Assembly: GCA_017549025.1 (NCBI GenBank)
Contig: JAFYWB010000055.1
Span: 18,943-82,942 of the forward strand
DNA: 64,000 nt
Direction: 5' to 3'
Origin: Treponema sp.
GTDB lineage: Bacteria; Spirochaetota; Spirochaetia; Treponematales; Treponemataceae
The notes under the pieces are model-generated. The model made no database searches. It was not told the DNA's origin and saw only the letters and a program-made list of their open reading frames with translations. Position numbers and translations under genes: made by a program. Of the stretch, positions 7,090 to 42,764 are shown one piece after another; the stretch's first letter is position 1; the number at the start of each line of letters is the position of its first letter.

Positions 7090-7326
7090 AGAAAAATCCC
7101 TTTTTGTAGTTATCGTAAGGAATTCAGCAAATCATCTAACTCTATTCACTGCAGGTACATGCACTGAATCAAGCTAAAGGGTTCACCAAAGCCCCGGAGG
7201 TTCCCTTTTTAAAGATACAAACCCCCCATACTATAAAATACCTTCTAAAGTGTAATGAAAATGAAAAAAAGTTGCTATAAGCTAACACTACATTTATGTC
7301 GTATTTACCAATTTTTTACAAAAGAG

Positions 7327-7351
7327 CTGATAGATGGGGCTGGATAAAAAA
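7327..7351. repeat. Terminal fragment of the dispersed GGGGAAC-rich repeat family (right-end motif only)
   Basis: TAGATGGGGCTGGATAAAAAA (7331-7351) is identical to 31922-31942. It closely matches 51566-51586. Confidence 0.6.
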
Positions 7352-7355
7352 TTAT

Positions 7356-7440
7356 AAAAAAAATCCAGTTTTTCTGGAAAAAACGCATTTTTTTGCACGT
7401 TCAAACCTATAATCTATATGTAAGAAAAAAATCTTGGAGG
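7356..7440 (+). promoter_or_regulatory. Conserved promoter/5'UTR cassette upstream of Rpn-family gene (copy 1)
   Basis: About 85 bp, roughly 90% identical by eye to 52010-52093: AAAAAATCCAG-TTTTTCTGGAAAAAACGCATTTTTTTGCACGTTCAAACCTATAATCTATATGTAAGAAAAAAATCTTGGAGG. Contains TATAAT at 7408-7413 and a GGAGG RBS. Confidence 0.55.
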
Positions 7441-7445
7441 AAAAG

Positions 7446-8339
7446 ATGAACAGCAAACACCCCAACACCGAAAATCGTAAGCACAAGGACTCTCTCTTTG
7501 TGGATTACTTTTCCAAGGACAGGGACTGGAAACAACACTTTCTTTCTCTGTACAACGCCCTCCACGGTACTGATTTACAAGTTGAAACCACAAGATTGGA
7601 ACGGGTTAACTTGGAGCAAGTCTTGTACATGGACTACTACAACGACATTGCAGTTATGGTAAATGACCAGTTCATCATGATGATTGAACACCAGTCCACC
7701 ATCAATCCTAACATGCCACTACGACTGTTGGAATACGTGACTCGAATCTACGGCAACATGGTGGATTCAAAATCCAAGTTTTCAAACCAACTGATTCCTC
7801 TAGCTAAGCCAGAATTCATTGTGTTTTACACCGGCAAGGAAAATATCCCACCAGAATGCTATCTTTCCCTATCAGATGCATTTAAGCTGAACCACGTCCC
7901 AAACTCGGAACTCACACTTGAATTAGTGGTAAAAGTGTGTAAAATTAAAAGTACAAATCCAAGTCCAGTGGTACATAATTGTCCTGACTTGGAACAATAC
8001 GTACAGTTTCTCAAGCTCATAGACGAAGCGAAATCAGATGGGCAGTCACAGCCACTCACAAGAGCCATTCAAAAAGCTGTACGTCACAATGTGCTAAAAG
8101 ATTACTTGGAGAGAAAAGGAGGTGAAGTTTTGAGTATTTTGATGACTGAATATGACTATGCCACCGACATTGCAGTAAAACAAGAAGAAGCTTATGCTAT
8201 TGGCCTAGAACAAGGAGCCTACCAAAAAGCTTTGGAAACAGCAAGAATGTTTCTTTCCTACGGTGATTCTCCAGAGAAAGTCGCCATTTGCACAAACCTT
8301 CCGCTGGATCTGGTGATGGAGCTTAGGCAAAAAGCTTAA
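7446..8339 (+). CDS. Rpn-family recombination-promoting nuclease / putative transposase (YhgA-like PD-(D/E)XK)
   Basis: Motif MMIEHQSTINPNMPLRLLEY matches the hEHQS...M..Rll.Y core of this family. ATG 7446 follows GGAGGA; the track start 7434 is a TTG inside the RBS. The C-terminal tail GLEQGAYQKALETARMFLS...TNLPLDLV is shared with the paralog at 52087. Confidence 0.75.
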   Translation: MNSKHPNTENRKHKDSLFVDYFSKDRDWKQHFLSLYNALHGTDLQVETTRLERVNLEQVLYMDYYNDIAVMVNDQFIMMIEHQSTINPNMPLRLLEYVTRIYGNMVDSKSKFSNQLIPLAKPEFIVFYTGKENIPPECYLSLSDAFKLNHVPNSELTLELVVKVCKIKSTNPSPVVHNCPDLEQYVQFLKLIDEAKSDGQSQPLTRAIQKAVRHNVLKDYLERKGGEVLSILMTEYDYATDIAVKQEEAYAIGLEQGAYQKALETARMFLSYGDSPEKVAICTNLPLDLVMELRQKA

Positions 8340-8400
8340 GTCCGCCAGCTTTCCGCCTAATATGAATGTTGGGCAGATTAAGCTGGCTCAAGCATGGCAA

Positions 8401-9783
8401 TTACCGCAGCAACAGGTTTAAAAGCTTACCGTACAGGCCTCGGTTGTAGGGCTGGTAACGAACAGGCAGGTCTATCCAGGTCTTTTTGTCCACAATGCTC
8501 TTGGTGTGGCTAAAGGCCTCAAAACCAGCCTTACCGTGATAGCCACCCATGCCGCTTTCCCCCACACCACCAAAGGCCATTTCACTGGTAGCCAGATGAA
8601 TGATGGTATCGTTGATACAGCCTCCACCGTAGGAAATCCTGCTCGTTACAGCATCGATGGTAGACTTCTTCTCAGAGAAAATATACAGTGCTAGAGGTTT
8701 GGGCCAACTCTGAAGCTTGGTTATCATTTGGTCAAGATTGTCATAAGTCAAAATCGGCATAATGGGCCCAAAGATTTCCTCCTGCATTACAGGATCATCC
8801 CAGGTCACGTCCTCCATCACCGTAGGCTCAATCTGGCAGGTAGCCTCATTCCAAGCCCCTCCCACCACAAGCTTTTCCTTCTGAATGAGTCCACACACCC
8901 GCTGGAAATGCTTTTGATTGATAATCTTTCCATAATCAGGATTATTCAAGGGCTCCTGTCCATACTGAGCCTTGATTTCCTCTTTCACCGCAGCTACAAA
9001 CTTGTCCTTAACGCTGGCATGACACAGGATAAAATCTGGAGCAACACAGGTTTGACCACAATTCAGGTACTTACCAAAAACGATTCTCTTTGCTGCCAGC
9101 TTGATTTTTGCCGTCTCGTCCACAATGCAGGGGCTCTTTCCTCCTAGCTCCAATACAGCAGGCGTTAAATGCTCTGCGGCAGACTTCAGCACTTCCTTTC
9201 CCACAGCCTGACTTCCCGTAAAGAAAATCATATCGAATTTTTGCTGGAGCAAGGCAGCATTTTCCTGTCGCCCTCCAGTAACCACGGCAACGTATTCAGG
9301 AGAAAAGGTTTCTTCTATTATTTTTACTACAAGGGCACTGGTGGCAGGCGAATAGGCGCTAGGCTTTATAATCACCGTATTTCCTGCAGCAATGGCGTTG
9401 GCTAAAGGCTCTATAGTCAGCAAGAATGGATAATTCCAAGGGCTCATAATCAGCACATTACCGTAGGGCACAGGTTTTTTATAGCTACGAGAAGCAAACT
9501 GAGCCAAAGGTGTTTTCACCACCTTTTCCTTGGCAAACTTTTTCACATGGCTTATCATGTAGGAAATTTCAGTCAGGCTCAATCCCACCTCACACATGAA
9601 TCCCTCGTAGTCACTTTTTCCCAAGTCGGAAGTAAGGGCTGCCAAAATTGCATCCTTTTGCTCTTGAACCGCCTTATACAACTTTTTCAGCATAGCAATT
9701 CTAAATGACACTGGCAGGGTTACCCCACTGTTAAAATAATTTCTCTGGGCAGCCAACACACCAGCAATTTCACTTGGATTCAT
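8401..9783 (-). CDS. NAD(P)-dependent aldehyde dehydrogenase (class 3-like)
   Basis: About 460 aa with FTGSQAVGKEV, ELGGKSPCIV and catalytic-Cys region GQTCVAPDF. ATG 9783 lies 5 nt after GAAGGAG; the track start 9789 is a GTG inside the spacer. Confidence 0.9.
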   Translation of the reverse strand: MNPSEIAGVLAAQRNYFNSGVTLPVSFRIAMLKKLYKAVQEQKDAILAALTSDLGKSDYEGFMCEVGLSLTEISYMISHVKKFAKEKVVKTPLAQFASRSYKKPVPYGNVLIMSPWNYPFLLTIEPLANAIAAGNTVIIKPSAYSPATSALVVKIIEETFSPEYVAVVTGGRQENAALLQQKFDMIFFTGSQAVGKEVLKSAAEHLTPAVLELGGKSPCIVDETAKIKLAAKRIVFGKYLNCGQTCVAPDFILCHASVKDKFVAAVKEEIKAQYGQEPLNNPDYGKIINQKHFQRVCGLIQKEKLVVGGAWNEATCQIEPTVMEDVTWDDPVMQEEIFGPIMPILTYDNLDQMITKLQSWPKPLALYIFSEKKSTIDAVTSRISYGGGCINDTIIHLATSEMAFGGVGESGMGGYHGKAGFEAFSHTKSIVDKKTWIDLPVRYQPYNRGLYGKLLNLLLR

Positions 9784-17299: not shown

Positions 17300-18739
17300 T
17301 TAGCCAATGGTTGTCCGCAATTTTACCAGACAATCAATAACAGCATTTGACCTATCCAGCAATTCACGGTACTTCTTTTCCCGCTCTTCTACGGACATCA
17401 AATTCTTGTTTCTAAACACATCCTTTACAATGCCATGGAGGGCTTCATGCTCTCTCAGCAGGTTCTGGAAGGTTGCAGTAGAGGTAATACCAGTGGCAGC
17501 AGCCTCATTGTCGATCCATTTACCCAAGTCACAGGCATGGTGGTCACCCAAGGTAACACCTTCCCCACTCATCTTTCCATCCAACAAGGCCCGAACCTTT
17601 GTTACCCAAGCAAGATGCTTCAACAAGATAGATGTAAAGGGGAATTTCTCTGTTACGTATTTTGAAGTTCCAGTACCATCGCACTGTGCCCGCTTACGAA
17701 CATTTCCATCAATATCGAGAGCGCAGTTCAACATATTATTCATGTCAAAAAGGTCACCGCTCATCATGTGGGAAATTTCATCAGCCTGCTTTTTGATGGC
17801 AGCCAAACCAACTCTCTCACTGTTTAACTCTGATACCATCTTGTTTACATTAGTAGAGATAGAAGAGAAATAGCTGTCTGTTTGACGGGAAAGATCAGAA
17901 ACCTGACGTACCGACTGGGTAATCTGACGGCTTCCAGAAGCAAGACTATCCATTTCGGAGGTAATCTCCTGGAAGGTTGAACGAGTTTCATCCACCTTAC
18001 CATCAATCCACTTCATAGCTGTACCAGCTTCATCAGCTGTGTGGTGAGCATCAGCCAAGGTATCAATCATGCTCTTAAGAGTTTTTTCAATGTTAGCGGA
18101 GTTTGCCTTTGTTCCTTCAGAAAGCTTTCTAATTTCTCCTGCAACTACAGCAAAACCAAGACCAGCCTTACCAGCATGAGCAGCCTCAATGGCAGCATTC
18201 ATAGCCAGCAGGTTTGTTCGTTCACTAATATCGTTGATGGCGGAAATAACATCCTTGATAGCATCTACGTTCTGGCTCAATACGTTAATAACATCCAAAA
18301 CCCGTGCAACCTTGCCAGCACCTTCACCAGTTGCAGTGGCAAGTTCATCCGTAATTTGAATTCTGTTTGAAACAACACTAGCAATATTTTGAACGGAAGA
18401 ACCAAACTGCTCAAACACAGCACCAGAAGATTGAATTTCGTTATTCAATCGCTTCAAGGAGTTCTCCATTTCAGTCATTCTTGTTCCAACATCGCTGGCA
18501 GAGCTAAAGACAGACTCTATACTGTTGGCAAACGAGCCTAAATTCTCCTTTTGCTCAGTCAAACAAAACAGAACATTAGACACAGACTTAATACTAGAGC
18601 GTAACAAAAAAGACAACTTTTCTGACGCGGAATAAATACCATCCAAATCCTGACAACTAGCACCAACAGCACGTTGGGTTGTTGAACCTACAGAAACATC
18701 AGCATTTTCAGTGGCCTTAGCCTTATTCTTACCAAACAT
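17300..18739 (-). CDS. Soluble methyl-accepting chemotaxis protein with C-terminal CZB (chemoreceptor zinc-binding) domain
   Basis: MCP signalling tip [38 protein letters not shown]. No hydrophobic TM segment visible. C-terminal [13 protein letters not shown]...[11 protein letters not shown] matches the CZB H-x3-C...H...H pattern. Confidence 0.85.
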
Positions 18740-18802
18740 AAATTCAGTATAGCATAGACATATTAGAAAAACAAGAATTATTTCACAAATATTAGCTGGC
18801 CT

Positions 18803-19660
18803 TTAATCTTCTACCTGTTGTAAATCTTCACAAATCAGGCTATACACACCCTTTTTTATCCGAACAAGAGTCTGATTTTTTTCATCCTGCTTTTCAAGAT
18901 ACTTCCGTATACAATGAATATAACGGTATATTTTTCGTACACTTTTTTCATCTTCAGGCAACATCAATAGCTCCAACATTTCAGCAAGGGATACTAAGGC
19001 ATTTTTTCGCCTGCAAAATAAATCCAAAAGAAGGTATTCTGAAAAAGACATTCTGGACACCTTCTGTGCCTTTAAATATCCTGCCACCAGAACCCGTTCT
19101 TCCTCAGATACAATTTTCTGAGCTGGCTCTTTTCGTAATCTGATAGGTTCTTGTAGCTCCACAGGTTTTTCTGGAACCTGCAAGTCTGATGTAGAAAAAT
19201 CTTCCGATGGAGCTTCTATTTGAATCAACTGTTTTGCCTCATCAGTTTTTACTGTAGTCAAAAGCTCCTGCATCCGATGACTTTCCACCACACTATCCCC
19301 TAAAAAAGGCTGATTTGCTACAATTCGTAGTAGGGATTCCAGCTCCGGTGTCCATAAATCAGGCCAACGTTCGTTTATTTTATCTTCCCAGTGAATAAAC
19401 AGGTTGTTGACTGTTCGTGGTTCGTTCAAAAAAAGAAAGATAAAGCTTCCTTCTTTTTCTTTAATATGCTTAAACACATCGAATTTATTGAAATTCATAA
19501 AATTACAATCAGCAAAAACCAAATCAATGGTCATGCGGGAGAACAAAACATGAAGGTCATTTACAGCATGTGCTGTCCAAAAAGGAAGATTTGCGTTTTC
19601 CATGCGGGAAGCATATTCGACATAAAACAGAGGATTTTCGGCCAAAAACAACACATTCAT
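18803..19660 (-). CDS. Atypical response-regulator-like protein: degenerate receiver plus OmpR/PhoB-type winged-helix
   Basis: N-terminus MNVLFLAENP... has EN where receivers carry the DD acidic pair. The C-terminus (LLLDLFCRRKNALVSLAEMLE...RKIYRYIHCIRKYLE...LVRIKKGVYSL) looks like a trans_reg_C wHTH. ATG 19660 follows GGAG. Confidence 0.6.
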   Translation of the reverse strand: MNVLFLAENPLFYVEYASRMENANLPFWTAHAVNDLHVLFSRMTIDLVFADCNFMNFNKFDVFKHIKEKEGSFIFLFLNEPRTVNNLFIHWEDKINERWPDLWTPELESLLRIVANQPFLGDSVVESHRMQELLTTVKTDEAKQLIQIEAPSEDFSTSDLQVPEKPVELQEPIRLRKEPAQKIVSEEERVLVAGYLKAQKVSRMSFSEYLLLDLFCRRKNALVSLAEMLELLMLPEDEKSVRKIYRYIHCIRKYLEKQDEKNQTLVRIKKGVYSLICEDLQQVED

Positions 19661-19676
19661 TTTTATCTCCAAGCCC

Positions 19677-19705
19677 TTGACCTAAAAAAGTTTTTATGTT
19701 GTAAT
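19677..19705 (+). promoter_or_regulatory. Candidate sigma70 promoter for tRNA-Val
   Basis: TTGACC (19677-19682), 17-nt spacer, TGTAAT (19700-19705), 14 nt before the tRNA 5' end. Confidence 0.45.
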
Positions 19706-19719
19706 ATTGAAACCTTTTA

Positions 19720-19793
19720 GGGCGATTAGCTCAGTTGGTTAGAGTACAAGCATGACACGCTTGGGGTCACTGGTTCGATTCCAGTATCGCCCA
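19720..19793 (+). tRNA. tRNA-Val (anticodon GAC)
   Basis: Hand-folded cloverleaf. Acceptor GGGCGAT/ATCGCCC, D-arm GCTC..GAGT, anticodon stem CAAGC/GCTTG with loop ATGACAC (anticodon GAC), T-arm ACTGG-TTCGATT-CCAGT, discriminator A. CCA is not encoded. Confidence 0.92.
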
Positions 19794-19796
19794 AAG

Positions 19797-19827
19797 AGAC
19801 AGTTGGTTTCCAGCTGTCTTTTTTTTA
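19797..19827 (+). terminator. Rho-independent terminator after tRNA-Val
   Basis: AGACAGTTGG / CCAGCTGTCT stem, then a T9 run. Confidence 0.7.
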
Positions 19828-34471: not shown

Positions 34472-34542
34472 AAAAAGATACATCCCAAGGGTGTAGTCTG
34501 AACAACTGCACCCAAAATCATTTTTCTTCAAAAAAATTCCAA

Positions 34543-34567
34543 AGTCGCCTCACAGGCGACTTTTTTG
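34543..34567. terminator. Bidirectional terminator hairpin
   Basis: AGTCGCCT-CAC-AGGCGACT followed by T6 and preceded by an A-run. Lies between the convergent ppaC and XRE genes. Confidence 0.6.
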
Positions 34568-34617
34568 TTATGTGGCTGTGCTATAGTGTACAAGACGAGG
34601 GGATTGGAAGGGTGAAG

Positions 34618-34950
34618 CTATGGATTGAGGCTTTGGCGAACCTCTTGAGCAATGACCTCTTTCAGGCGGCTCATGATGTGGTCGGTAATTTCTTGAGAAA
34701 ATTGCTGGCTGCCATTATGACGCAGGTTTTCTGGGGAGCCGTCCTTGAGGAAAAGTTGGGCTGGGTCAATTTCCAGAATCTTTGCCATCTGGTCTATTAC
34801 ATCTGGCGGAGGGAAGGAGTTGCCACCTTCGATACAATTGATGTAATTGTAGCCCTTGTTCAGGTAGACGGATAAATCCTTTTGGGTCAGCCCTCGTTTT
34901 TTGCGGAAATAACGGAGGTTGGCAATGAAGGTTTGTTGCAGAGACATCAC
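34618..34950 (-). CDS. XRE-family helix-turn-helix transcriptional regulator
   Basis: LRYFRKKRGLTQKDLSVYLNKGYNYINCIEGG is a classical HTH_3/XRE motif. 110 aa. Confidence 0.8.
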   Translation of the reverse strand: MMSLQQTFIANLRYFRKKRGLTQKDLSVYLNKGYNYINCIEGGNSFPPPDVIDQMAKILEIDPAQLFLKDGSPENLRHNGSQQFSQEITDHIMSRLKEVIAQEVRQSLNP

Positions 34951-34980
34951 TACATTATGAATCTAAAGCCTTATTCATTC

Positions 34981-34997
34981 ACATTATAATATAATGT
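34981..34997. promoter_or_regulatory. Perfect 8-1-8 palindrome, candidate operator in the divergent XRE/lipoprotein intergenic region
   Basis: ACATTATA-A-TATAATGT. Additional half-sites: ACATTAT at 34952-34958 and TATAATGT at 35031-35038. Confidence 0.4.
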
Positions 34998-35155
34998 TTA
35001 ATCTATTTACTTTCACATTGACATCGATATTATAATGTGTAAAAATATCGACAGAATCATGTTTCTGTTGTGATTCAGCACAAAAGACATGGTTTTATAG
35101 AATAGTTTTCTGGTGAAAGCTTTTTGCTTTTGCCAAAACGGAAGGAGGAGCTTTT

Positions 35156-35584
35156 ATGAAAGCTTTGAAGAAGAATGGACTGGGAGGCGGACTTGTTGCC
35201 GCCCTACTGGTGATGGCAGTGCTGGGACTGTTTTCCCTGACAGGGTGTGCGAATACTAGTGAAGGAGCAAGCGGACCGAATTTATTTCTTGGAGAATGGG
35301 TTTATACAACTACTGAAACATTTTCTTATATGACAGTAAAAAGTATATACACATTGAGATTTGAAAGTGATGGCCAGTGTACTTGGATTTTACGAGAAAT
35401 ACTCAATGCCATGGGAAGTGAAACGCGGGGATCTAAAATTCTTGATACCTATAAATATACTGTAAATGCTGATACTGCAACACTCAGTCCCAATGGAATT
35501 CCTACAGCAAAAATTACATTAAACCCAGATGGAAAAAGCTTCTGGTATGATGGGTTTATCTATACGAAGCAGGAAGGACTTTAA
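35156..35584 (+). CDS. Small lipoprotein, function unknown
   Basis: Signal peptide with lipobox LFSLTGC. GGAGGAG RBS. 142 aa. Confidence 0.7.
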   Translation: MKALKKNGLGGGLVAALLVMAVLGLFSLTGCANTSEGASGPNLFLGEWVYTTTETFSYMTVKSIYTLRFESDGQCTWILREILNAMGSETRGSKILDTYKYTVNADTATLSPNGIPTAKITLNPDGKSFWYDGFIYTKQEGL

Positions 35585-35707
35585 GTATTAATATGTTTGT
35601 TAACACATTGGTGTTATGATATGTTTTTCAGACTTCAGCATGATAAAACTATCATAGTTTTCTTAAAGAAGCTGTGGCGGGGCTTGCAGGGAGAAAGAAG
35701 GGAATAT

Positions 35708-36439
35708 ATGAATACTTTTAATGATGAAGATTATCTTCAAAGAGTCTTTGATGTAACACATCTCGATGCCAATACATTGGAAACAATTCAAACGGCATTT
35801 AACATAGCACACGAAATTCGCAGATTTGAAATTGAATTATTCTGGAAAAGAGGAACTTATTTTTGGGCATTTATTCTAGCATCTTTCACAGCATACTTTG
35901 CAACTATTGATAAAGTTCTCGGTGATGGTAAAATTTGTTTAACAACACTGAAAGAAATTCCTTTATTTTCAAAATTCATATTGTTACTGATTATTTGTCT
36001 TTGTTTCTTTTTCTGTTTATCTTGGATTCTTATCAGCAAAGGTTCCAAATTTTGGCAAAAAAACTGGGAATCACATATAGACTTTTTAGAAACATTTGTT
36101 TCCGGAAAAATTTATAAAACAATTTTAAATACAAAAAACCAAGAATTTAATAAATGCCCTCTCAAAACAGAGGCATTCGATTACTCTGTTACCATTATAA
36201 CTACTGTCGGCGCTATTTTTCTTACATGCATTACAGCAATTTTAGTTCTTTTTCATTCTTTTTTAGTTTTAAACGATATAATTTCTTTGAATACAGATTG
36301 TATCTACACCTTTTTAGGAATTGGCATTCTGGTAATTTTTGTTGTAGCACTTAAAGAGCTTTTGAAAAGTGAAGGAAATCATGATATACATAGAAAAATC
36401 AATAAAGAACAAAATTCTGGTAAATGGAGACAAAGATAA
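35708..36439 (+). CDS. Four-TM membrane protein with N-terminal cytoplasmic helical segment, function unknown
   Basis: ATG 35708 follows GAAAGAAGGG. TM segments GTYFWAFILASFTAYFATI, FILLLIICLCFFFCLSWILI, VTIITTVGAIFLTCITAILVLF and IYTFLGIGILVIFVVAL. About 30% GC. Confidence 0.6.
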   Translation: MNTFNDEDYLQRVFDVTHLDANTLETIQTAFNIAHEIRRFEIELFWKRGTYFWAFILASFTAYFATIDKVLGDGKICLTTLKEIPLFSKFILLLIICLCFFFCLSWILISKGSKFWQKNWESHIDFLETFVSGKIYKTILNTKNQEFNKCPLKTEAFDYSVTIITTVGAIFLTCITAILVLFHSFLVLNDIISLNTDCIYTFLGIGILVIFVVALKELLKSEGNHDIHRKINKEQNSGKWRQR

Positions 36440-36506
36440 ACAACAATTACAATCAAAAATTTAACATACTACAGAGTAAACAGGAAATTATTTTAGGAGG
36501 AACTTT

Positions 36507-37022
36507 ATGTTGGTTTTAATGCTGTTAATTTTTTATATAGGAGGAGGGATTCTTTATTATATATATTTATGTAACCGTGGTAAACCAGACAAACGAGAAA
36601 GAAAAGCTTTAAAGCAAAAACAAGAATATGAACAATATATGTGGGATAATTACAATCATCTCTGTCAAAAATGGGATCCTGTGTTGGAAAAATGGCCTTC
36701 TTACATCGAAGTAAACAAAAAACAGCAAATTACAAATGATACTGTTTCTTTCTTGGCTGATTTTAAAAGTAATTGTGCTTTAAGGGTTGCGAGAAGAAAA
36801 TGTGATTGTAACAGGAAATGCAATAATTGTGGACAATATAATACCGATAAAAATTGTCTCTTTCAATGTAAAAGCAGTTGTTTAGCCTGCGTTCAATTTC
36901 GAAAATATGCAAATTGTTATGTCCAATTGAGTGAATATCAACAAATGGAAGTTGATCAACTTGCGATGAAATATTTTCGCAATTATATTGCAAATGGAGT
37001 ACCTCCTGGTACAGAGTGGTAA
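36507..37022 (+). CDS. N-terminally TM-anchored Cys-rich protein, function unknown
   Basis: AGGAGG RBS. MLVLMLLIFYIGGGILYYIYL TM segment. Cluster RRKCDCNRKCNNCGQYNTDKNCLFQCKSSCLACVQFRKYANC. Confidence 0.6.
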   Translation: MLVLMLLIFYIGGGILYYIYLCNRGKPDKRERKALKQKQEYEQYMWDNYNHLCQKWDPVLEKWPSYIEVNKKQQITNDTVSFLADFKSNCALRVARRKCDCNRKCNNCGQYNTDKNCLFQCKSSCLACVQFRKYANCYVQLSEYQQMEVDQLAMKYFRNYIANGVPPGTEW

Positions 37023-37102
37023 GCTATTAGGAGATTACCTATAAGCAACCACTCCTACAACTAAGAATAAGAAATAGACCACTAGAATCAATGAGGAAAA
37101 CC

Positions 37103-37291
37103 ATGAAACAGACAATCAATTCGAAGAACAATCAACAAAGCACTGATCCACAGCGACAGCCAACGATCAGCTTTATACTTACAGTTTTGCCAATGCTTAT
37201 GTTACTTGGACAAGGATTACTAAGAATATTTTTACGGAGACGCAGAAATAGAAATTCACAGTATGACCATTTACTACCTCCATTTTTTTAA
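37103..37291 (+). CDS. Possible small single-TM protein
   Basis: GAGGA RBS 6 nt before ATG 37103. Hydrophobic core ISFILTVLPMLMLLGQGLL, then RRRRNR. No family recognised. Confidence 0.3.
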   Translation: MKQTINSKNNQQSTDPQRQPTISFILTVLPMLMLLGQGLLRIFLRRRRNRNSQYDHLLPPFF

Positions 37292-37370
37292 GATCTTAAC
37301 CAATGTTGCATTTGTACGTCAAACTAAATTGTAATAAGAAAGCAGCGAACAATTTCATAAGGAGAAACGC

Positions 37371-38225
37371 ATGAAAACACGCAAGTTAATAGCACTGGTT
37401 CTGGCACTGGCTACAAGTATGGTTGTACCATTGATGGCGCAGGCCAACGGCGGCATGAAGCTGGTACAAGGTGGCACCTTCACCATGGGCAACACCGACC
37501 TGCCGAAAAAGGAAAGCTGGAATGCTGACGAATTCCCTGCTCACACAGTGACAGTCAGTAGCTTCTACGTCAGCGAGCAACCCATTACCCTGGAGCAGTG
37601 GATGTACGAGATCGATATATATCCCGATGGCTATCTTGAAAGACAAAACAACAAATATGTTCACCGCAACCAGTGGAAGACCAATACGGCGGCCAACATC
37701 ACTTGGTTTGATGCCCTCACCTACTGCAACCGTCGCAGTCTGACAGAAGGGCTCACACCCTGCTACGCTTCCAACGGTTCTACGGATGCGGTTACAAACC
37801 CCAAGTATCTCAGGGCTACGGAGGATCTGCCCAACATCACCTGTGACTGGAACGCCAACGGCTACCGGCTGCCCACCGAGGCGGAGTGGGAGTATGCGGC
37901 AGGAAAAGGTGTGTTAAAAAGTGACTATCCTTACAATGGAACTACCTTTAGAGGGGACTATGCCGACGAGCAAAACGAGTGGGTATGGGACTGGTACAGC
38001 AGTAGCTACTACCAGGTCAGCGGTAACAGTGTGAACCCACGAGGGCCGAATTATGGGGAAATGAGTTTTAGTTCTGGAGGTAGAAATGGACATGAAGTTC
38101 CCTGCCGTGTCATCCGTGGCGGTATCAGACGAGTGACAAGCAGAAGCAAGCTTGATCCCACAGAGTACGAATTCCTTGTGGGTCCCCTGCCAATCGCATT
38201 CCGCGTAGTCCGCAACGCCCAGTAA
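37371..38225 (+). CDS. Formylglycine-generating enzyme (SUMF1/FGE-sulfatase) family protein, secreted/lipoprotein-like
   Basis: Signal peptide, then MKLVQGGTFTMGN...EFPAHTVTVSSFYVSEQPITLEQW...NGYRLPTEAEWEYAA...RVIRGG, the FGE-family pattern. AAGGAG RBS. Confidence 0.85.
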   Translation: MKTRKLIALVLALATSMVVPLMAQANGGMKLVQGGTFTMGNTDLPKKESWNADEFPAHTVTVSSFYVSEQPITLEQWMYEIDIYPDGYLERQNNKYVHRNQWKTNTAANITWFDALTYCNRRSLTEGLTPCYASNGSTDAVTNPKYLRATEDLPNITCDWNANGYRLPTEAEWEYAAGKGVLKSDYPYNGTTFRGDYADEQNEWVWDWYSSSYYQVSGNSVNPRGPNYGEMSFSSGGRNGHEVPCRVIRGGIRRVTSRSKLDPTEYEFLVGPLPIAFRVVRNAQ

Positions 38226-38339
38226 GTCCACCCACAAAGTCGCCTCCCACTCACCCCCCAAAAAAAGTCGCCTAAAAAGCGACCAACGGGTAATTTATTT
38301 GCGGTATACTATCTTCATCACCTAGAAAGGAGTGGTTTT

Positions 38340-39902
38340 ATGGAAGCACAGTACAAGTATTATGATGAAGCACAAAAGATTAAGATTGTGGAGGTGGCCA
38401 TCCCTGAGCTGGACGGCAAGGAATACACCTATCTCATGACGGATGATTACCTTGCCTTGGCAAAGGAACTGCTACAGTTCGGCTTTAACGAAAAATTTGT
38501 GGAATCAGATTTCATCCCCAATCCTCACCTTTCTCCAGCAGTGCAAAAAGCTATGGAAGTAGCTGGGGCCACCTATTCTGTTACCTTCAGCCACGATGTC
38601 CATATCATGAACCATTATGTTCCTGGCATGGCACCTGAAATCTGCAATCTCACTCCCTTTGCCTGTCGCATTAAAACCTCTTGTCCGCCATTGCTCGTAA
38701 CGGTGGCCATGATGGATGCTGTACGACAGGTGGAATTCCTGCTGAATGCCCATGTTTCCCTAGAACAAGAAGATCGCCACGGCCGCACCGCCCTGATTGC
38801 TGCTGCCCAAATGAATGCCCTCAAAGCAGGCAAACTCCTCATTGCCCACGGAGCCTCTGTTGATATTCGTGATAGCTATGGCCTTACGCCCCTTACCGCT
38901 GCAGTCAGCATAAACGCATTGGATTTTGCCAAGCTCCTGCTGGACAATGGTGCCAAGGTAAATCGTTTCAGCACGGAAACCTCTCCCCTGCTGCTGGCAG
39001 CAAGCCGCAATTTTTGCCAGATGATTGAGCTTCTGCTAGACCGAGGAGCAGACATCAACATCACATCTCCCCATGGCTCCACTCCCCTGCTACAAGCCAT
39101 CGACCATTCTGCCCAGGAAGCAGCCTGCCTGCTGATAGAACGGGGCGCAAATATCCATGTGCAAGATAAGCGAGGCTACACGCCAGTTCGCCTTTTGGCT
39201 CGCAAGGGGCTTTCTTTGGTGCTGAGAAAGCTCATAGATGCAAAACTTCTTACCCAGCTAGACATGGAGACTGTACTGGCCTATGCCACCATCGGAGGCC
39301 AACTTTCCTTGGTAAAGCATCTGATTTATGAAAAAATGGATGTGAATTTTCAGGTAGAAGAAGGATTTTCCCTGTTAACCTTGGCGGTCATGGGCAACTA
39401 CAAAGACATCGTTCAATTTTTACTGGAACAGGGGGCAGACATGGAGCTACGGGACAAAATGGGATTGCGCCCTTTGGACCACGCAGAACGAGATGGCAGA
39501 GTGGAAATCCAGAAAATGCTGACGGAGCAATACAAGAAAAAGAATATCACTCCTCAACCAGCCTATGGACAAGATTACCAAGGTATGCTGAACCAGTTCA
39601 TAAAACGCCATCTGGCACAGCACCCAGAAAAGAAACGCTCAGATATCTGGAAGGGTACCACCAGTATTTCCAAGCAGCTTTTTTCCGACATCACCAAAAA
39701 GGAAGGCTACAAAACAAAGAAGGACAAGCTAGTAATTCTGGCTGCCCAGCTTCAGCTTTCGGTAGAAGAACTCAACCACTTGCTCAAGGTTGCAGGCTTT
39801 GGTCTTTCCCAAGCAGACGAGATTGAAAACAAAATCATCCACGCCTTTACCAGCAAGGACTACGCCAGCGTAGAGCAGCTCCTACTACCAAGCTCAACTT
39901 AG
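38340..39902 (+). CDS. Ankyrin-repeat protein with C-terminal HTH-like segment
   Basis: At least 7 ANK repeats (e.g. HGRTALIAAAQMNALKAGKLLIAHGASVDIRD, YGLTPLTAAVSINALDFAKLLLDNGAKVN). The C-terminus DKLVILAAQLQLSVEELNHLLKVAGFGLS resembles the tail of XRE-type HTH domains. Confidence 0.85.
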   Translation: MEAQYKYYDEAQKIKIVEVAIPELDGKEYTYLMTDDYLALAKELLQFGFNEKFVESDFIPNPHLSPAVQKAMEVAGATYSVTFSHDVHIMNHYVPGMAPEICNLTPFACRIKTSCPPLLVTVAMMDAVRQVEFLLNAHVSLEQEDRHGRTALIAAAQMNALKAGKLLIAHGASVDIRDSYGLTPLTAAVSINALDFAKLLLDNGAKVNRFSTETSPLLLAASRNFCQMIELLLDRGADINITSPHGSTPLLQAIDHSAQEAACLLIERGANIHVQDKRGYTPVRLLARKGLSLVLRKLIDAKLLTQLDMETVLAYATIGGQLSLVKHLIYEKMDVNFQVEEGFSLLTLAVMGNYKDIVQFLLEQGADMELRDKMGLRPLDHAERDGRVEIQKMLTEQYKKKNITPQPAYGQDYQGMLNQFIKRHLAQHPEKKRSDIWKGTTSISKQLFSDITKKEGYKTKKDKLVILAAQLQLSVEELNHLLKVAGFGLSQADEIENKIIHAFTSKDYASVEQLLLPSST

Positions 39903-39906
39903 CCTG

Positions 39907-40011
39907 TCAGCCTACCCGCTTATCGTACCACAACCTGACCGTCAGCCTACCCGCTTATCGTACCTGAATCTGACCCTCAGCCTACCCACTTATCGTACCT
40001 GAATCTGACCC
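39907..40011. repeat. 35-bp tandem repeat x3 spanning the 3' end of cobB
   Basis: Units at 39907-39941, 39942-39976 and 39977-40011: TCAGCCTACCC(G/A)CTTATCGTACC(TGAAT/ACAAC)CTGACC(C/G). Units 2 and 3 differ at 1 nt. Confidence 0.85.
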
Positions 40012-40814: not shown

Positions 40815-42764
40815 ATGAAAATTATGACAACAACATCGAACATTCAAATTCTGTTGCGTTCCTATGCAACACATCAGAAAAGTGCCCAAGTAAATGTGGC
40901 GGAATTTTGTGACTATATAAAGAAATACGCTCAGCATCATGCAAGTGACCAGAGCGACTTGCTCCCTTATATCAACAATGCTCCTGAGCTAGTAAAAAAG
41001 GAATTAGATAAACTTGCCCAAGAGCGGCAGATTCTCTACGTAACTACAGATCCAGAAAACAAGGAAGTTATCGTTATTCCTTACTATATGGACAAGTGTA
41101 TTGCTGTCTATCAAAACATCAAGAAAAACCCTGCCATTCCCTATCCCTTTGATACAGATTTGCCTAAAAACACTCCCCTAGAGGCTTTGAAGCATGAATC
41201 TGCAGATGTGTATTTGGGAGAAACGCTGGGAAAAGATAGTATCAAGGAAAATGCTCTGTACTGCCTCCAGCTTCCCCGGGGCTTGCCTTCAATCCTTTGT
41301 CCCACCACCTTGCCCACCGAGGATTTACTGTCCATTGCTTTGTCCAAATTCCAGATGAGGCTGCAGAAGGACGAATTCCACGACTATTTCTTGAAAAAGC
41401 TGCAGGTGGCAAACCCCGGCAAGGATTTGACCGTTAAGAATTTTTTCAAAACAGTGGCACAAAAAAGCGAAGAAGCCCTTCGCTCCATCAAAAATGCCTC
41501 CGACACCTTCTACCAGTGGAACCAGCTGTGCTTCTTTGTTCGACAGGACTACGAAAAGGTAACGGACTTGACTGCAGAAGACATTTCTCTGCTGCAATCC
41601 ATCTACATTCTGGAATTCTGCGTTACCACCTATCGCAACAAAGCTCAGCAAAATCTGCAGAAGGAAACTGCCCTCAAAAACCTTGAACTGAACCTGAACA
41701 AGCCTCCTTATTATTTTACTCGGGAAAATATCAACATGTTCTCCGATTCCCGTGGAGTTCCTCTGTTGGGACAATATAGCGACAAGGATTTAAATGATTA
41801 CATCCAGAACGCCACCACAGAATCCGAGGACAATAAGCTTCCTCCCCTGCTGACCTTCAAGGGAATCAATAATACTCAAACCTACGTGCTTAAGGCTAAG
41901 GTGCTTCCTCTGATTGTCCGCCTGTGTACCGATGCTCGTGAAACCATCCGAGATCAAATCACCAAGGACTGCTTCAACGACCTGAAGAATTTTTCTTCTG
42001 TACCAGAAATGAAGAATCAGGAGCTTTTTGAAAAGACTCTGGAAAATGCAGTGAAAATCAAATCTCCCATTCTTTATGCCCTGTTGAATGCCCCCTTCCT
42101 AAAGGCATTGCAGTATGAAAGCCGAGGCATGACGGAGCTGGTAACTGGTCATATCCACCTGTTTACTGACGGAGAGCTTTCTCCCTACAGTGAACTTTTA
42201 ATGCTGTCCAAGGAGGAAATTCTCACTGACGCACGGATTTTGCTGCCCGTGTGGTACACCATTCCTGGTGTGTCTTGGCTGTTTGCTCTGTTCAAAGGAC
42301 AGCCCAAGCAGAAAAAACCCAAACCCTCCAAGCAGGCAACCCAAAAGAAAATGCTTTCCTCCGACGAAGCCGAAGTCTATGACGAGCCTTCACCTTTGTC
42401 AAACCAAGATATTGCCGCTGTATCTCGCAAAGAGGAGTTAAAGCAGGCAGCTTTGGAGGCAGAAAAGCATTATGTGCCCCAAGGCTCCACCATTGAGCGG
42501 GAGCTATCCTCCTACGAGCACGCCTGGAACAGAATGCTCAGCAAGCAGGCTCGTGACAATCTGACAGAGGACGTAAATTCCTTGATTCGTGACTATATGC
42601 GTAAGATTCTCCGTACTTTGCGGGCCAACAACTTTACTCCAGAAAGAATCAACAATTTGGCCACCACTCTGGTAAAGACTCCTGGCATGATGAAGATTCA
42701 AGACCAAGCTGAACTGCACATGTACGTTCAGCTATACATGGTAAAGCTCATTAAGGGACTGTAG
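40815..42764 (+). CDS. Hypothetical protein (649 aa) with one TM-like segment near residue 480 and a Lys-rich linker
   Basis: Long ORF with normal codon usage. ILLPVWYTIPGVSWLFALF followed by KGQPKQKKPKPSKQ. No family recognised. Confidence 0.6.
   Translation: MKIMTTTSNIQILLRSYATHQKSAQVNVAEFCDYIKKYAQHHASDQSDLLPYINNAPELVKKELDKLAQERQILYVTTDPENKEVIVIPYYMDKCIAVYQNIKKNPAIPYPFDTDLPKNTPLEALKHESADVYLGETLGKDSIKENALYCLQLPRGLPSILCPTTLPTEDLLSIALSKFQMRLQKDEFHDYFLKKLQVANPGKDLTVKNFFKTVAQKSEEALRSIKNASDTFYQWNQLCFFVRQDYEKVTDLTAEDISLLQSIYILEFCVTTYRNKAQQNLQKETALKNLELNLNKPPYYFTRENINMFSDSRGVPLLGQYSDKDLNDYIQNATTESEDNKLPPLLTFKGINNTQTYVLKAKVLPLIVRLCTDARETIRDQITKDCFNDLKNFSSVPEMKNQELFEKTLENAVKIKSPILYALLNAPFLKALQYESRGMTELVTGHIHLFTDGELSPYSELLMLSKEEILTDARILLPVWYTIPGVSWLFALFKGQPKQKKPKPSKQATQKKMLSSDEAEVYDEPSPLSNQDIAAVSRKEELKQAALEAEKHYVPQGSTIERELSSYEHAWNRMLSKQARDNLTEDVNSLIRDYMRKILRTLRANNFTPERINNLATTLVKTPGMMKIQDQAELHMYVQLYMVKLIKGL

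Follow-up and report, generated by a model that had tools for sequence, protein, structure and literature searches.

Proteins that exclude superinfecting phages or abort infection at the membrane include lambda RexB, P22 SieA, T4 Imm and HK97 gp15, and lipoproteins such as TP-J34 Ltp, T5 Llp and phi80 Cor act as superinfection-exclusion factors. A further lead is offered by the SLATT/DUF4231-type effector domains with two transmembrane (TM) segments, which also occur in defence contexts and which presumably resemble the 8xMP protein described below in combining a cytoplasmic helix and a TM hairpin with a conserved juxtamembrane helix; an HMM search at E ≤ 0.1 gave no match to any SLATT family.

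We analyzed a window of 64,000 nucleotides from a gut Treponema, which contains a locus that resembles described defence loci in several respects. As in defence islands and other variable hotspots, cassettes turn over independently between conserved core genes, and a sister strain (L004) carries a type II restriction-modification (R-M) system at the same hotspot, consisting of a C-protein-like HTH, an ICEA nuclease and a DNA_methylase. As is the case for R-M C-proteins and the CBASS controller CapH, a divergent small HTH gene is present, with palindromes over the promoter-like site of the cargo. In contrast to defence islands, much of the Treponema hotspot cargo consists of envelope or ankyrin proteins rather than defence genes, and no Treponema core gene encodes a catalogued defence protein (PADLOC v2). 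The first-pass annotation of this DNA had proposed a candidate for an undescribed multi-gene system, with a composition known from phage-defence, bacteriocin-immunity and surface-modification modules. Its accessory low-GC island was corroborated, as was a recurrent link between the XRE, lipoprotein and 4-TM genes, and the family of the 4-TM protein was indeed found in prophages and defence islands; a single system of six genes and the lack of a known family for the 4-TM protein were not borne out, and no core gene matched PADLOC. We regard a phage-defence or envelope module as plausible and not as a proven new system.

Recombination hotspot between ppaC and cobB

All ORFs of the interval, i.e. 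those of the XRE regulator, the lipoprotein, the 4-TM protein, the Cys-rich protein, the 62-aa peptide, the FGE protein and the ankyrin protein, were found where the first-pass annotation had placed them. Pfam domain searches also agreed with the flanking genes, a CBS-DRTGG-DHH/DHHA2 pyrophosphatase of the ppaC type on the left and a SIR2 gene of the cobB type on the right. In more distant relatives (L013 and L015), ppaC abuts cobB and the entire XRE-ankyrin block is missing according to tblastn maps, while homology to L013 stops at 34472 and restarts at 39956 in blastn. The accessory block (34472..39956) has almost the limits proposed earlier. Close to its left border, a bidirectional terminator-like hairpin (34541..34563; 10-bp stem, T-tails on both strands) closes ppaC and the XRE gene. 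The GC content in 400-nt windows is 28-31% at 35.6-37.0 kb and 49-53% at 37.4-39.2 kb; in 1-kb windows, the window has a mean of 46% (sd 4.6), and the segment from 35.5 to 36.5 kb is the minimum of all 64 kb (29-30%). The low-GC core, which had been suspected to be foreign, behaves as mobile, foreign DNA in an accessory and variable interval.

Comparison of related strains showed that the ppaC-cobB interval is a recombination hotspot framed by the XRE regulator and the ankyrin gene, and that cassettes are exchanged there via homologous recombination at conserved junctions, including the sequence for the lipoprotein signal peptide. Among close strains, the lipoprotein mature domain, the 4-TM gene, the Cys-rich gene and the FGE gene are swapped independently in blastn comparisons, and the exchange breakpoints (35252, 35659, 37359 and 38256) are intergenic or coincide with the lipoprotein signal peptide. 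The lipoprotein gene (35156-35584, + strand) begins with this conserved signal peptide and its lipobox MKALKKNGLGGGLVAALLVMAVLGLFSLTGC-A (35156..35251), which together form the left-hand recombination junction of the cassette region, and homology to L003, L016, L009 and L008 stops exactly at 35252. In close relatives, the same leader is 88-97% identical and carries at least five unrelated mature domains, the mature parts being 10-24% identical. The strain-variable mature domain of the window lipoprotein (110 aa, 35252..35584) had no match in Pfam, NCBIfam or PADLOC.

The XRE gene, which is 94-98% identical in sister loci with different cargo, belongs to the conserved frame of the hotspot, and the ankyrin gene is its right-hand frame gene, with 72-94% identity in L008, L009, L014 and L016, all without the core. 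Other cargo lies between the same two genes in these four loci and in L010, and further hotspot cargo is envelope-related (LpoB-like, transglutaminase, omptin-like and TvpA-like proteins). In another locus (L054), the 8xMP gene is 96.5% identical to that of the window at the DNA level, the Cys-rich gene only 70% over 258 nt. No integrase, tRNA or flanking repeat was found at the hotspot. The six genes do not form one system as had been proposed, and the hotspot interval is not one single system: each gene is exchanged independently, and the FGE and ankyrin genes were found without the 8xMP or Cys-rich genes in L008, L009 and L016 (the FGE gene without the low-GC core in L008 and L009). These comparisons show that the low-GC core is one cassette set comprising 8xMP, the Cys-cluster protein and possibly the 62-aa TM peptide.

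The XRE regulator and the low-GC core

The divergent XRE-family HTH regulator (34618..34950, - strand; 110 aa) matches HTH_19 and HTH_3 above the Pfam cut-offs. Its PADLOC matches to capH, C-protein and RmrA are weak and confined to the HTH, and weak similarity is also seen to HipB/Y4mF-type antitoxins. A candidate operator and promoter region lies upstream (34972..35047). It contains a 21-nt inverted repeat with arms at 34972-34992 and 35027-35047 as well as the palindrome ACATTATAATATAATGT (34981-34997), which together bracket a promoter-like site on the + strand (TTGACA-17-AAAAAT, 35018-35046).

The 4-TM protein (35708..36439, + strand; 243 aa, ~4 TM, GC ~30%) had been thought, as had the other core proteins, to belong to no known family. 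We found that it is an 8xMP/RipA-family inner-membrane protein (PF24838; E = 2e-27, 96 bits compared to a cut-off of 30, profile positions 3-134 of 136), a family that is named “RipA family octameric membrane protein” in PGAP and UniRef. An alignment of homologues supported the start codon and revealed the invariant motifs RxFE..W.R..Y.W and WQ.NWE; the window protein has every family-invariant residue (E41, W46, R48, Y51, W116, Q117, N119, W120, E121 and S160). What distinguishes the Treponema copy is its setting in a spirochaete cassette, where it is accompanied by a divergent XRE gene, a lipoprotein that is swappable and an orphan Cys-cluster protein. The AF2 model is all-helical (pLDDT 80), and a predicted N-in/C-in topology places the conserved motifs on the cytoplasmic face. 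The structural search called for earlier yielded no analogue in PDB or BFVD, so that a pore or exclusion activity of 8xMP is purely conjectural. No function is assigned to PF24838 in the literature we found, in which the matches referred to RIPA buffer or Francisella RipA.

The adjacent gene (36507..37022, + strand) encodes an orphan membrane-anchored Cys-cluster protein of 171 aa with an N-terminal TM segment, a basic linker and a C-terminal Cys domain. This domain contains ten cysteines, of which nine are invariant; the cluster is spaced C-x8-C-x-C-x3-C-x2-C-x8-C-x3-C-x3-C-x2-C, and the tenth cysteine, C137, lies 8 residues beyond it and is kept in most homologues. Searches of 5.8 billion and 1.84 billion proteins yielded only 2 clusters and 3 genuine representatives, respectively, and the gene is an orphan confined to this Treponema lineage. 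The protein had no fold match, its model reaching a pLDDT of only 69. It had been taken for an exported protein; its charge pattern, however, favours a membrane anchor. Since the hydrophobic segment is not preceded by a positively charged n-region and is followed by 25 K/R residues, the positive-inside rule suggests that the protein is probably anchored N-out/C-in with its Cys cluster, which probably binds metal, in the cytoplasm. Downstream lies an ORF of uncertain gene status for a possible single-TM peptide (37103..37291, + strand; 62 aa, or 66 aa if the start is at 37091), in which the TM segment is followed by RRRRNR. The peptide is 97-100% conserved in the window-type loci L002-L007, is missing from L011 and gave no family in profile searches.

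The lipoprotein, Cys-rich, FGE and ankyrin genes have strong Shine-Dalgarno matches. The notion of strong ribosome binding sites throughout the core applies to the lipoprotein and Cys-rich genes, whereas those of the 8xMP gene (AAGGGA) and the 62-aa ORF (GAGGA before 37103) are weaker. The intergenic gaps of 123 and 67 nt could accommodate separate promoters, and a single operon is putative.

The 8xMP family and possible functions of the cassette

The 8xMP family is little studied, widespread and horizontally mobile, and its genes are AT-rich compared to their flanks in 78 of 80 loci (mean difference 10.9 points). They occur on 34 IMG/VR contigs and were not found in PHROGs. In P2-like prophages, they lie between the baseplate V/W/J and tail-completion genes, in lambdoid prophages between tail K and I/J. 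Like prophage morons and superinfection-exclusion proteins, 8xMP is a small, polytopic, AT-rich inner-membrane protein encoded in non-essential slots (P2 R/S-V gap, lambdoid tail region) antisense to structural genes, and the window copy lies beside a repressor-type XRE and a lipoprotein. The Treponema locus, however, is not a prophage, and 8xMP has no sequence or fold similarity to any of the exclusion and abortive-infection proteins named at the outset.

Other 8xMP genes adjoin DRT2 (E = 5e-205), PD-Lambda-5 A and B, and DNA methyltransferases. In E. coli, the family is present in 6 of 5426 genomes. In the four of these with inspected context, its surroundings are those of a defence island: an R-M methylase or type IIG gene immediately precedes 8xMP, the KwaAB genes converge on it and an SspE-like nuclease is encoded close by; one of these islands has a type II Zorya and three have a relaxase gene. 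A fifth, divergent copy is located in an integrase island next to mutS. The association of 8xMP with defence genes is anecdotal, and 8xMP usually has no conserved partner: 377 neighbours fall into 281 clusters, and a tight same-strand neighbour is lacking for 39 of 113 genes. Family-wide, XRE enrichment near 8xMP was not significant (8/550 vs 4/723, p = 0.14, with an XRE HMM derived from the same loci).

In Treponema-type contigs, a divergent ~110-aa XRE gene is followed by a secreted protein or lipoprotein gene and then by 8xMP in L056, L060, L068, L070 and L136, with variants in L122 and L134. The 8xMPs of these loci are ~35-50% identical to that of the window, and the middle genes are non-homologous (BspA-LRR, Flg_new, Big_3). 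In L070, L078, L083 and L089, a gene for a small Cys-rich TM protein overlaps the 8xMP stop codon or begins shortly after it, the overlaps suggesting translational coupling. Zinc-ribbon membrane proteins flank the closest 8xMP relatives, and PIN/antitoxin pairs adjoin the 8xMP loci L060, L062, L064 and L136. Treponema accessory genomes are rich in BspA-LRR, ankyrin and zinc-ribbon genes, so that part of the co-occurrence may be background. Of the link between the genes, which had been proposed from adjacency, the XRE-lipoprotein-4-TM part thus recurs elsewhere as a layout, whereas the Cys-rich gene is confined to the lineage and 8xMP usually has changing partners.

Our best guess, to which we assign a probability of roughly 0.4, is that the cassette may represent an XRE-controlled phage-exclusion module acting at the inner membrane. 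XRE would bind the upstream palindromes and control a lipoprotein-8xMP-Cys-rich transcript that might extend to the 62-aa ORF. 8xMP would form a homo-oligomer in the cytoplasmic membrane, and its two invariant motifs on the cytoplasmic face could contact the cytoplasmic Cys-cluster domain of its neighbour. The module would make the cell resistant to phages, either through superinfection exclusion, in which the phage genome is kept from entering, or through abortive permeabilisation of the membrane. We favour a role in phage protection because the family is found elsewhere in prophage moron slots and defence islands.

It is rather unlikely that the spirochaete 8xMP instead works with a co-transcribed surface lipoprotein or adhesin, for example in membrane anchoring, sorting or trans-envelope signalling, with the hotspot serving host interaction or antigenic variation and not phage defence. 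Such a role would fit the gene just upstream of Treponema-type 8xMP, which almost always encodes a secreted protein or lipoprotein of the adhesin type (BspA LRR_5, Listeria-Bacteroides repeat, Big_3, caspase-Sel1), separated by 7 to ~32 nt or overlapping, as well as the conserved leader and swappable mature domains of the window lipoprotein and the envelope-related hotspot cargo. However, a same-strand lipoprotein adjoins only ~9 of 113 8xMP genes outside the spirochaete group, the proteobacterial gene is either solitary in a prophage tail region or has R-M, Kiwa or DRT2 genes as neighbours, and the conserved motifs face the cytoplasm and not the periplasm. Similarly doubtful is the view that unrelated accessory genes share a permissive hotspot, adjacency being meaningless and 8xMP an autonomous single-gene moron. 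The independent exchange of all genes, the FGE and ankyrin genes without the core, a Cys-rich gene orphaned at one locus, the lack of a universal 8xMP neighbour and the non-significant XRE enrichment are consistent with it, but the identical layout in at least five more loci with non-homologous middle genes and divergent 8xMPs, together with the overlaps of Cys-rich TM genes with the 8xMP stop codon, argues against it.

We consider it improbable that the locus is a selfish addiction cassette, in which 8xMP would be a membrane toxin silenced by XRE as repressor or antitoxin and the pair would stabilise the cassette, as in toxin-antitoxin or R-M C-protein control, with no dedicated anti-phage role. 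The divergent XRE with palindromes over the promoter-like site, its weak similarity to antitoxins, C-proteins and RmrA, and the PIN/antitoxin pairs beside 8xMP point in this direction; yet XRE stays when other cargo replaces the 8xMP cassette (L016, L009 and L008), and most 8xMP genes have no nearby XRE. If the family name refers to Francisella RipA, 8xMP may modulate lipid A or glycolipid synthesis, given that Francisella RipA is a cytoplasmic-membrane protein that interacts with LpxA and is genetically linked to LpxA and GlmU (PMC4322802, PMC12444477). This is very improbable, as no Francisella sequence was among the named PF24838 hits and the patchy, AT-rich distribution of 8xMP in prophages and islands, including its rarity in E. 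coli, fits a housekeeping envelope function poorly. Least credible is a bacteriocin with its immunity protein (the Cys-rich protein or 62-aa peptide as exported toxin, 8xMP as immunity protein), for although small TM and Cys-rich ORFs lie beside a polytopic membrane protein under a small regulator, the Cys-rich protein has neither a signal-peptide n-region nor leader-cleavage motifs and is predicted to be N-out/C-in, no transporter, protease or modification enzyme is encoded at the locus, 8xMP usually lacks a conserved partner, and profile searches gave no bacteriocin family match.

The FGE and ankyrin genes

The FGE/TvpA-like and ankyrin genes reside in the hotspot independently and do not belong to the module. 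The former (37371..38225, + strand) encodes a secreted protein of the FGE-sulfatase (C-type-lectin-like) fold (PF03781, 82.6 bits over only profile positions 4-150 of 255), whose best relative among solved structures is Treponema denticola variable protein 1, TvpA (2Y3C, E = 2.6e-11). The two share the FGE-sulfatase/C-type-lectin-like domain. Unlike this variable protein of a DGR, the window protein has no DGR, reverse transcriptase and template repeat being absent from the window, and its allele differences are not limited to a C-terminal variable region; its gene lies outside the low-GC core.

The ankyrin gene (38340..39902, + strand) encodes a 520-aa protein whose N- and C-terminal domains are unassigned. 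It had been described as an ankyrin-HTH fusion; the ankyrin repeats are evident (Ank_2, E = 8e-48), but Pfam and PDB sequence searches detected no HTH in the C-terminus. In L056, an ankyrin-repeat protein is encoded beside the XRE gene, and its N-terminus resembles that of the window protein as judged by eye.

Organization and cargo of the ppaC-cobB interval

The block under study is flanked by genes for a CBS-DRTGG-DHH/DHHA2 pyrophosphatase (ppaC type) and a SIR2 deacetylase (cobB type). A six-frame ORF listing placed all of its genes where the first-pass annotation had put them: an XRE-type regulator gene on the minus strand (34618-34950) and, on the plus strand, genes for a lipoprotein (35156-35584), a polytopic membrane protein (35708-36439; the ATG start is backed by homologue alignment), a Cys-rich protein anchored by a transmembrane (TM) segment (36507-37022), a TM ORF of 66 or 62 aa (37091/37103-37291), an FGE-domain protein (37371-38225) and an ankyrin protein (38340-39902). 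The proposed low-GC core was borne out by a sliding-window analysis. GC content is 28-31% at 35.6-37.0 kb and 49-53% at 37.4-39.2 kb (400-nt windows), and the lowest value of the 64 kb lies at 35.5-36.5 kb (29-30%, 1-kb windows), with a whole-window mean of 46% (sd 4.6).

Searches with the ppaC protein led to Treponema MAGs of gut origin, recovered from human, yak, water deer and chicken samples, and the whole block recurs in identical or near-identical form in several metagenomes. In two more distant relatives (loci L013 and L015), ppaC directly adjoins cobB in tblastn/blastn maps, and blastn homology to L013 stops at 34472 and restarts at 39956. The entire XRE-to-ankyrin block is therefore accessory, with limits almost exactly as first proposed. 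Close relatives (ppaC 95-97% identical) keep the XRE gene, and most of them the ankyrin gene, with different cargo in between, among it LpoB-like, transglutaminase-like, omptin-like and DUF6973 proteins, ankyrin proteins both small and large, and members of a family with an N-terminal zinc ribbon. The latter family (N-terminus MDD(N)CG(T/H)CP(K/R)CGGEL(K/R)ISP...LYECS(D/N)YECDY; no Pfam match) recurs in the hotspot with or without the polytopic membrane protein, at L016 13098-14351, L014 13091-15189, L012 13923-15128 and L011 15545-16396. The window-type locus L004 holds a type II restriction-modification (R-M) system between the FGE and ankyrin genes (6733-9191; GC 32-34%), composed of an 80-aa HTH C-protein-like gene, an ICEA-family nuclease and a DNA cytosine methylase. 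Compared with locus L054, the membrane protein gene of the window is 96.5% identical at the DNA level, and the Cys-rich gene is only 70% identical over 258 nt.

The breakpoints within the block are sharp. Homology to four of the related loci (L003, L016, L009 and L008) stops at 35252, the final base that codes for the lipoprotein signal peptide with its lipobox. In L003, the mature lipoprotein domain alone is replaced and homology restarts at 35659; the corresponding positions are 37359 for L009 and 38256 for L016. Across these loci the 32-aa leader is 88-97% identical, whereas the mature domains share 10-24% identity and are by this measure unrelated. Among closely related strains, one leader thus precedes five or more unrelated mature domains (window 35156-35584; L003 4198-4641; L016 12338-12841; L008 4009-4941; L009 4496-4906). 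The signal-peptide sequence seems to serve as a recombination junction for exchanging surface domains.

No integrase was found among the ORFs of 32-43 kb, no direct repeats flank the block, no tRNA gene lies nearby (the sole one of the window is at 19720-19793), and an Rfam scan of 31-44 kb returned no element. Together with the sharp breakpoints, these results show that the interval is a hotspot of independent cassettes swapped by homologous recombination and not one inserted element. An integrative island or prophage was considered and rejected, given that integrase, nearby tRNA and flanking repeats are missing and that the junctions are homologous-recombination breakpoints.

The FGE protein carries a signal peptide and matches PF03781 at 82.6 bits, but only with the N-terminal part of the profile (150 of 255 positions). 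Its best solved relative is the Treponema denticola variable protein TvpA (2Y3C, E 2.6e-11), and both matches point to the FGE-sulfatase/C-type-lectin fold expected of a variable protein of diversity-generating retroelements (DGRs). TvpA is the target of such a retroelement. In the 64-kb window, no part of 37371-38260 recurs (best off-target 18-20 nt, E ≥ 0.16), and no reverse transcriptase ORF was noticed. We therefore rejected a DGR for this gene. Its alleles are of two types, which differ mainly in the C-terminal third, and the differences are not confined to a variable region. Taken together, this points to a predicted TvpA-like binding protein without sign of an active DGR here. The neighbouring gene had been described as an ankyrin-HTH fusion; the repeats were confirmed, but the C-terminal HTH is not detectable. 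The ankyrin gene may be linked to the XRE gene and not to the cargo.

The 8xMP membrane protein family in phage and defence contexts

The first-pass annotation had found no family for the polytopic membrane protein, which has four TM segments. It does belong to one: Pfam PF24838, "8xMP, octameric membrane protein family", matches at 96.0 bits (cut-off 30, E 2.1e-27) over profile positions 3-134 of 136. The domain is present in all 103 homologues found, and "RipA family octameric membrane protein" is the name given to homologues in RefSeq/PGAP and UniRef. Alignments of spirochaete, clostridial, Bacteroidetes and proteobacterial prophage members (A1, A4) revealed two invariant motifs, R-x-F-E-I...W-x-R..Y-x-W just before TM1 and G-S-K-x-W-Q-x-N-W-E just after TM2. 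According to its AF2 model (pLDDT 80), the protein consists of helices throughout: a hairpin of two very long ones (21-71 and 86-132) and two C-terminal TM helices. Hydropathy and the distribution of K and R predict an N-in/C-in topology in which the N-terminus, the 110-156 loop and the C-tail are cytoplasmic, which would place both invariant motifs in the cytoplasm. Neither phmmer nor a profile hmmsearch matched PDB sequences, and Foldseek of the model against PDB and BFVD gave nothing below E 0.6. The protein adds a new member to a family that is catalogued but opaque in function.

For the Cys-rich protein, which is a true orphan, searches of 5.8 billion and 1.84 billion proteins yielded two clusters and three genuine representatives, respectively. 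Its hydrophobic N-terminal segment is uncharged and precedes a very basic linker, and the ten Cys residues form two C..C-x3-C-x2-C units. The protein had been taken to be exported; the positive-inside rule instead predicts a cytoplasmic Cys domain, which would favour a metal cluster over disulfides. Its weak model (pLDDT 69) matched no known fold. We rejected an obligate pair of 8xMP and Cys-rich protein, since none of the 113 other 8xMP loci contains the Cys-rich gene of the window, which likewise argues against a fixed system. The 62-aa ORF, a candidate gene, is conserved in window-type loci only, is absent from the comparison locus L011 and has a modest RBS.

A defence module had been among the functions initially considered for the core. 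In PADLOC-DB v2.0.0, there was no meaningful match for any core protein (lipoprotein, 8xMP, Cys-rich protein, 66-aa ORF) or for the FGE protein, and the matches of the XRE and ankyrin proteins concern generic HTH and ANK domains only. PHROGs and NCBIfam searches with the core proteins gave no informative match.

The 8xMP family is widespread and mobile, with copies on 34 IMG/VR viral contigs and at least 461 metagenome matches. In P2-like prophages the gene lies on the opposite strand between baseplate and tail-completion/terminator genes, and in lambdoid prophages between minor tail protein K and I/J, as judged from flanks annotated with PHROGs. The family itself is in no PHROG (v4) and therefore behaves like a moron. 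A tblastn search of the GenBank phage collection with a prophage 8xMP gave no match, and PADLOC was also negative for the E. coli and prophage proteins. Three tandem 8xMP paralogues on each of two IMG/VR contigs (L038 7165-10003; L043 7185-9331) hint at hetero-oligomers or at rapid duplication and divergence.

Some copies adjoin a full-length DRT2 reverse transcriptase (E 5e-205), others PD-Lambda-5 A+B and DNA methyltransferases, and further copies follow rumAB-like polymerase genes. On two viral contigs (L041 6424-8789; L045 6437-8774), a longer 8xMP variant of 322-328 aa is located ~90 nt downstream of full-length DRT2, and in L041 it is followed by a gene whose predicted product is methyltransferase-like in appearance. 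The 8xMP gene occurs in 6 of 5426 complete E. coli genomes. In all four inspected, it follows an R-M gene at a distance of ~50 nt, is convergent with kwaAB and lies near an SspE-like nuclease gene or its remnant; the R-M gene is either HsdM with an S-like protein or a fusion of Eco57I type. The R-M gene and the RipA-family gene may be functionally linked. Type II Zorya is nearby in one of these four genomes, and three of the four islands carry a relaxase gene; E. coli 8xMP islands are represented by L053 2687-8175, L138 3786-14672 and L139 3651-9247. A fifth, divergent E. coli copy is part of an integrase island adjoining mutS.

The 8xMP gene is more AT-rich than its flanks in 78 of 80 loci (mean difference 10.9 points), and the low GC of the window core is therefore a property of the family. 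Its neighbours are very diverse (281 clusters among 377), and 39 of 113 copies are without a tight same-strand neighbour. Judged from these gene orders, 8xMP would evidently be able to work alone.

Putative XRE control and a recurring Treponema layout

The XRE protein matches HTH_19 (32.3 bits) and HTH_3 (29.6 bits), and its small gene diverges from the cargo, a layout that, with palindromes over a candidate promoter, fits controllers of the R-M C-protein/CapH-like type. Upstream of the lipoprotein gene, a promoter-like site (TTGACA-17-AAAAAT) is bracketed by a 21-nt inverted repeat (arms 34972-34992 and 35027-35047) and an 8-1-8 palindrome (34981-34997), which is consistent with putative control by XRE. 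A divergent gene for an XRE protein of ~110 aa, a secreted protein or lipoprotein gene and, a few bases on, an 8xMP gene also occur in L056, L060, L068, L070 and L136, with variants of this layout in L122 and L134. The middle genes are non-homologous and of adhesin type (BspA LRR_5, Listeria-Bacteroides repeats, Big_3, caspase-Sel1). In L070, L078, L083 and L089, the 8xMP stop codon is overlapped or directly followed by a gene for a small Cys-rich protein with two TM segments. The closest 8xMP relatives (47-50% identity; L001, L134 and L135) are sandwiched by MFCxYCG zinc-ribbon membrane proteins, with PrsW, ankyrin and FGE domains nearby. Across the family, XRE genes are not significantly enriched near 8xMP (8/550 versus 4/723, p = 0.14), which argues against a fixed system. 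In L056, an ankyrin-repeat protein gene (2700-3806) directly adjoins the XRE gene, and the N-terminus of its product resembles that of the window's ankyrin protein by eye.

Proposed role of the 8xMP cassette

Starting from the observed hotspot structure, family membership, mobility and genomic contexts, we tentatively propose, with a probability of roughly 0.4, that the low-GC core represents a mobile cassette in which 8xMP is joined by a lineage-specific Cys-cluster partner; it would be controlled by XRE and would exclude or abort phages at the membrane. The cassette would be expressed together with the swappable surface lipoprotein under XRE control. 8xMP would oligomerise and interact with the Cys-rich protein, and phage infection may be excluded or aborted by the cassette at the cytoplasmic membrane. 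The neighbours that bear on such a role are many individual examples (P2-like and lambdoid slots, DRT2, PD-Lambda-5, R-M, Kiwa and Zorya, with the R-M system of L004 at the very locus of the window), and the PADLOC scan of 140 neighbour proteins gives counts per family with all loci pooled. A far-reaching extension, which we regard as doubtful, would be an undescribed modular, envelope-spanning immunity system of spirochaetes, in which a surface lipoprotein or adhesin-type protein and an oligomeric 8xMP channel of the inner membrane are placed behind an XRE-gated promoter and a membrane-anchored Cys/metal-cluster subunit on the cytoplasmic side provides coupling or sensing, with 8xMP/RipA as a widespread, uncatalogued single-gene phage-exclusion effector carried by prophages and defence islands. 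The Treponema arrangement of XRE, junction-leader lipoprotein, 8xMP and Cys-cluster partner appears undescribed in the literature searched.

If 8xMP excludes phages, the defence catalogue would gain a family that is represented in Spirochaetes, Firmicutes, Bacteroidetes and Proteobacteria, has members in P2-like and lambdoid prophages as well as in E. coli defence islands, and is listed neither in PADLOC v2 nor in PHROGs v4. To our knowledge, almost nothing is known about phage defence in gut and oral Treponema, for which the family would then provide a first handle. Independently of this, the locus illustrates a mechanism of surface variation: the conserved leader seems to form a recombination junction at which unrelated mature domains can be exchanged under one promoter-like region, putatively XRE-controlled, and this bears on antigenic and phage-receptor variation in host-associated spirochaetes.

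The interval could instead be a surface-protein or antigenic-variation module, which we consider unlikely. Against it speak the 8xMP copies of Proteobacteria in prophage tail regions and beside defence genes. Mere accretion of unrelated genes is similarly improbable. It would agree with the FGE and ankyrin genes persisting at the locus without 8xMP, while the XRE/exported protein/8xMP layout recurs in Treponema-type contigs. The one multi-gene system initially suggested is upheld in part only, through this layout. An addictive membrane toxin silenced by XRE appears quite improbable. A role in envelope lipid homeostasis similar to that of Francisella RipA, a membrane protein that interacts with LpxA, is very improbable, as the link consists of the PGAP product name only; literature searches for 8xMP, RipA and PF24838 returned RIPA lysis buffer, the PDB code 8XMP, or Francisella RipA papers without a description of the family. 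A bacteriocin/immunity pair is extremely improbable. A phage-excluding 8xMP cassette remains our preferred interpretation. Even without a role in defence, the presumed unknown multi-gene system is resolved into independent cassettes that share a hotspot, and one of them can be assigned to a named family.

Two further features of the window were recorded. Another low-GC patch (37%) at 18500-19800 covers a 289-aa ORF on the minus strand (18803-19672), which directly adjoins the tRNA-Val gene (19720-19793). Next to cobB, a 649-aa protein without a Pfam or NCBIfam family (40815-42764) is 81-94% identical in all related Treponema loci and is encoded by a lineage-specific core gene.
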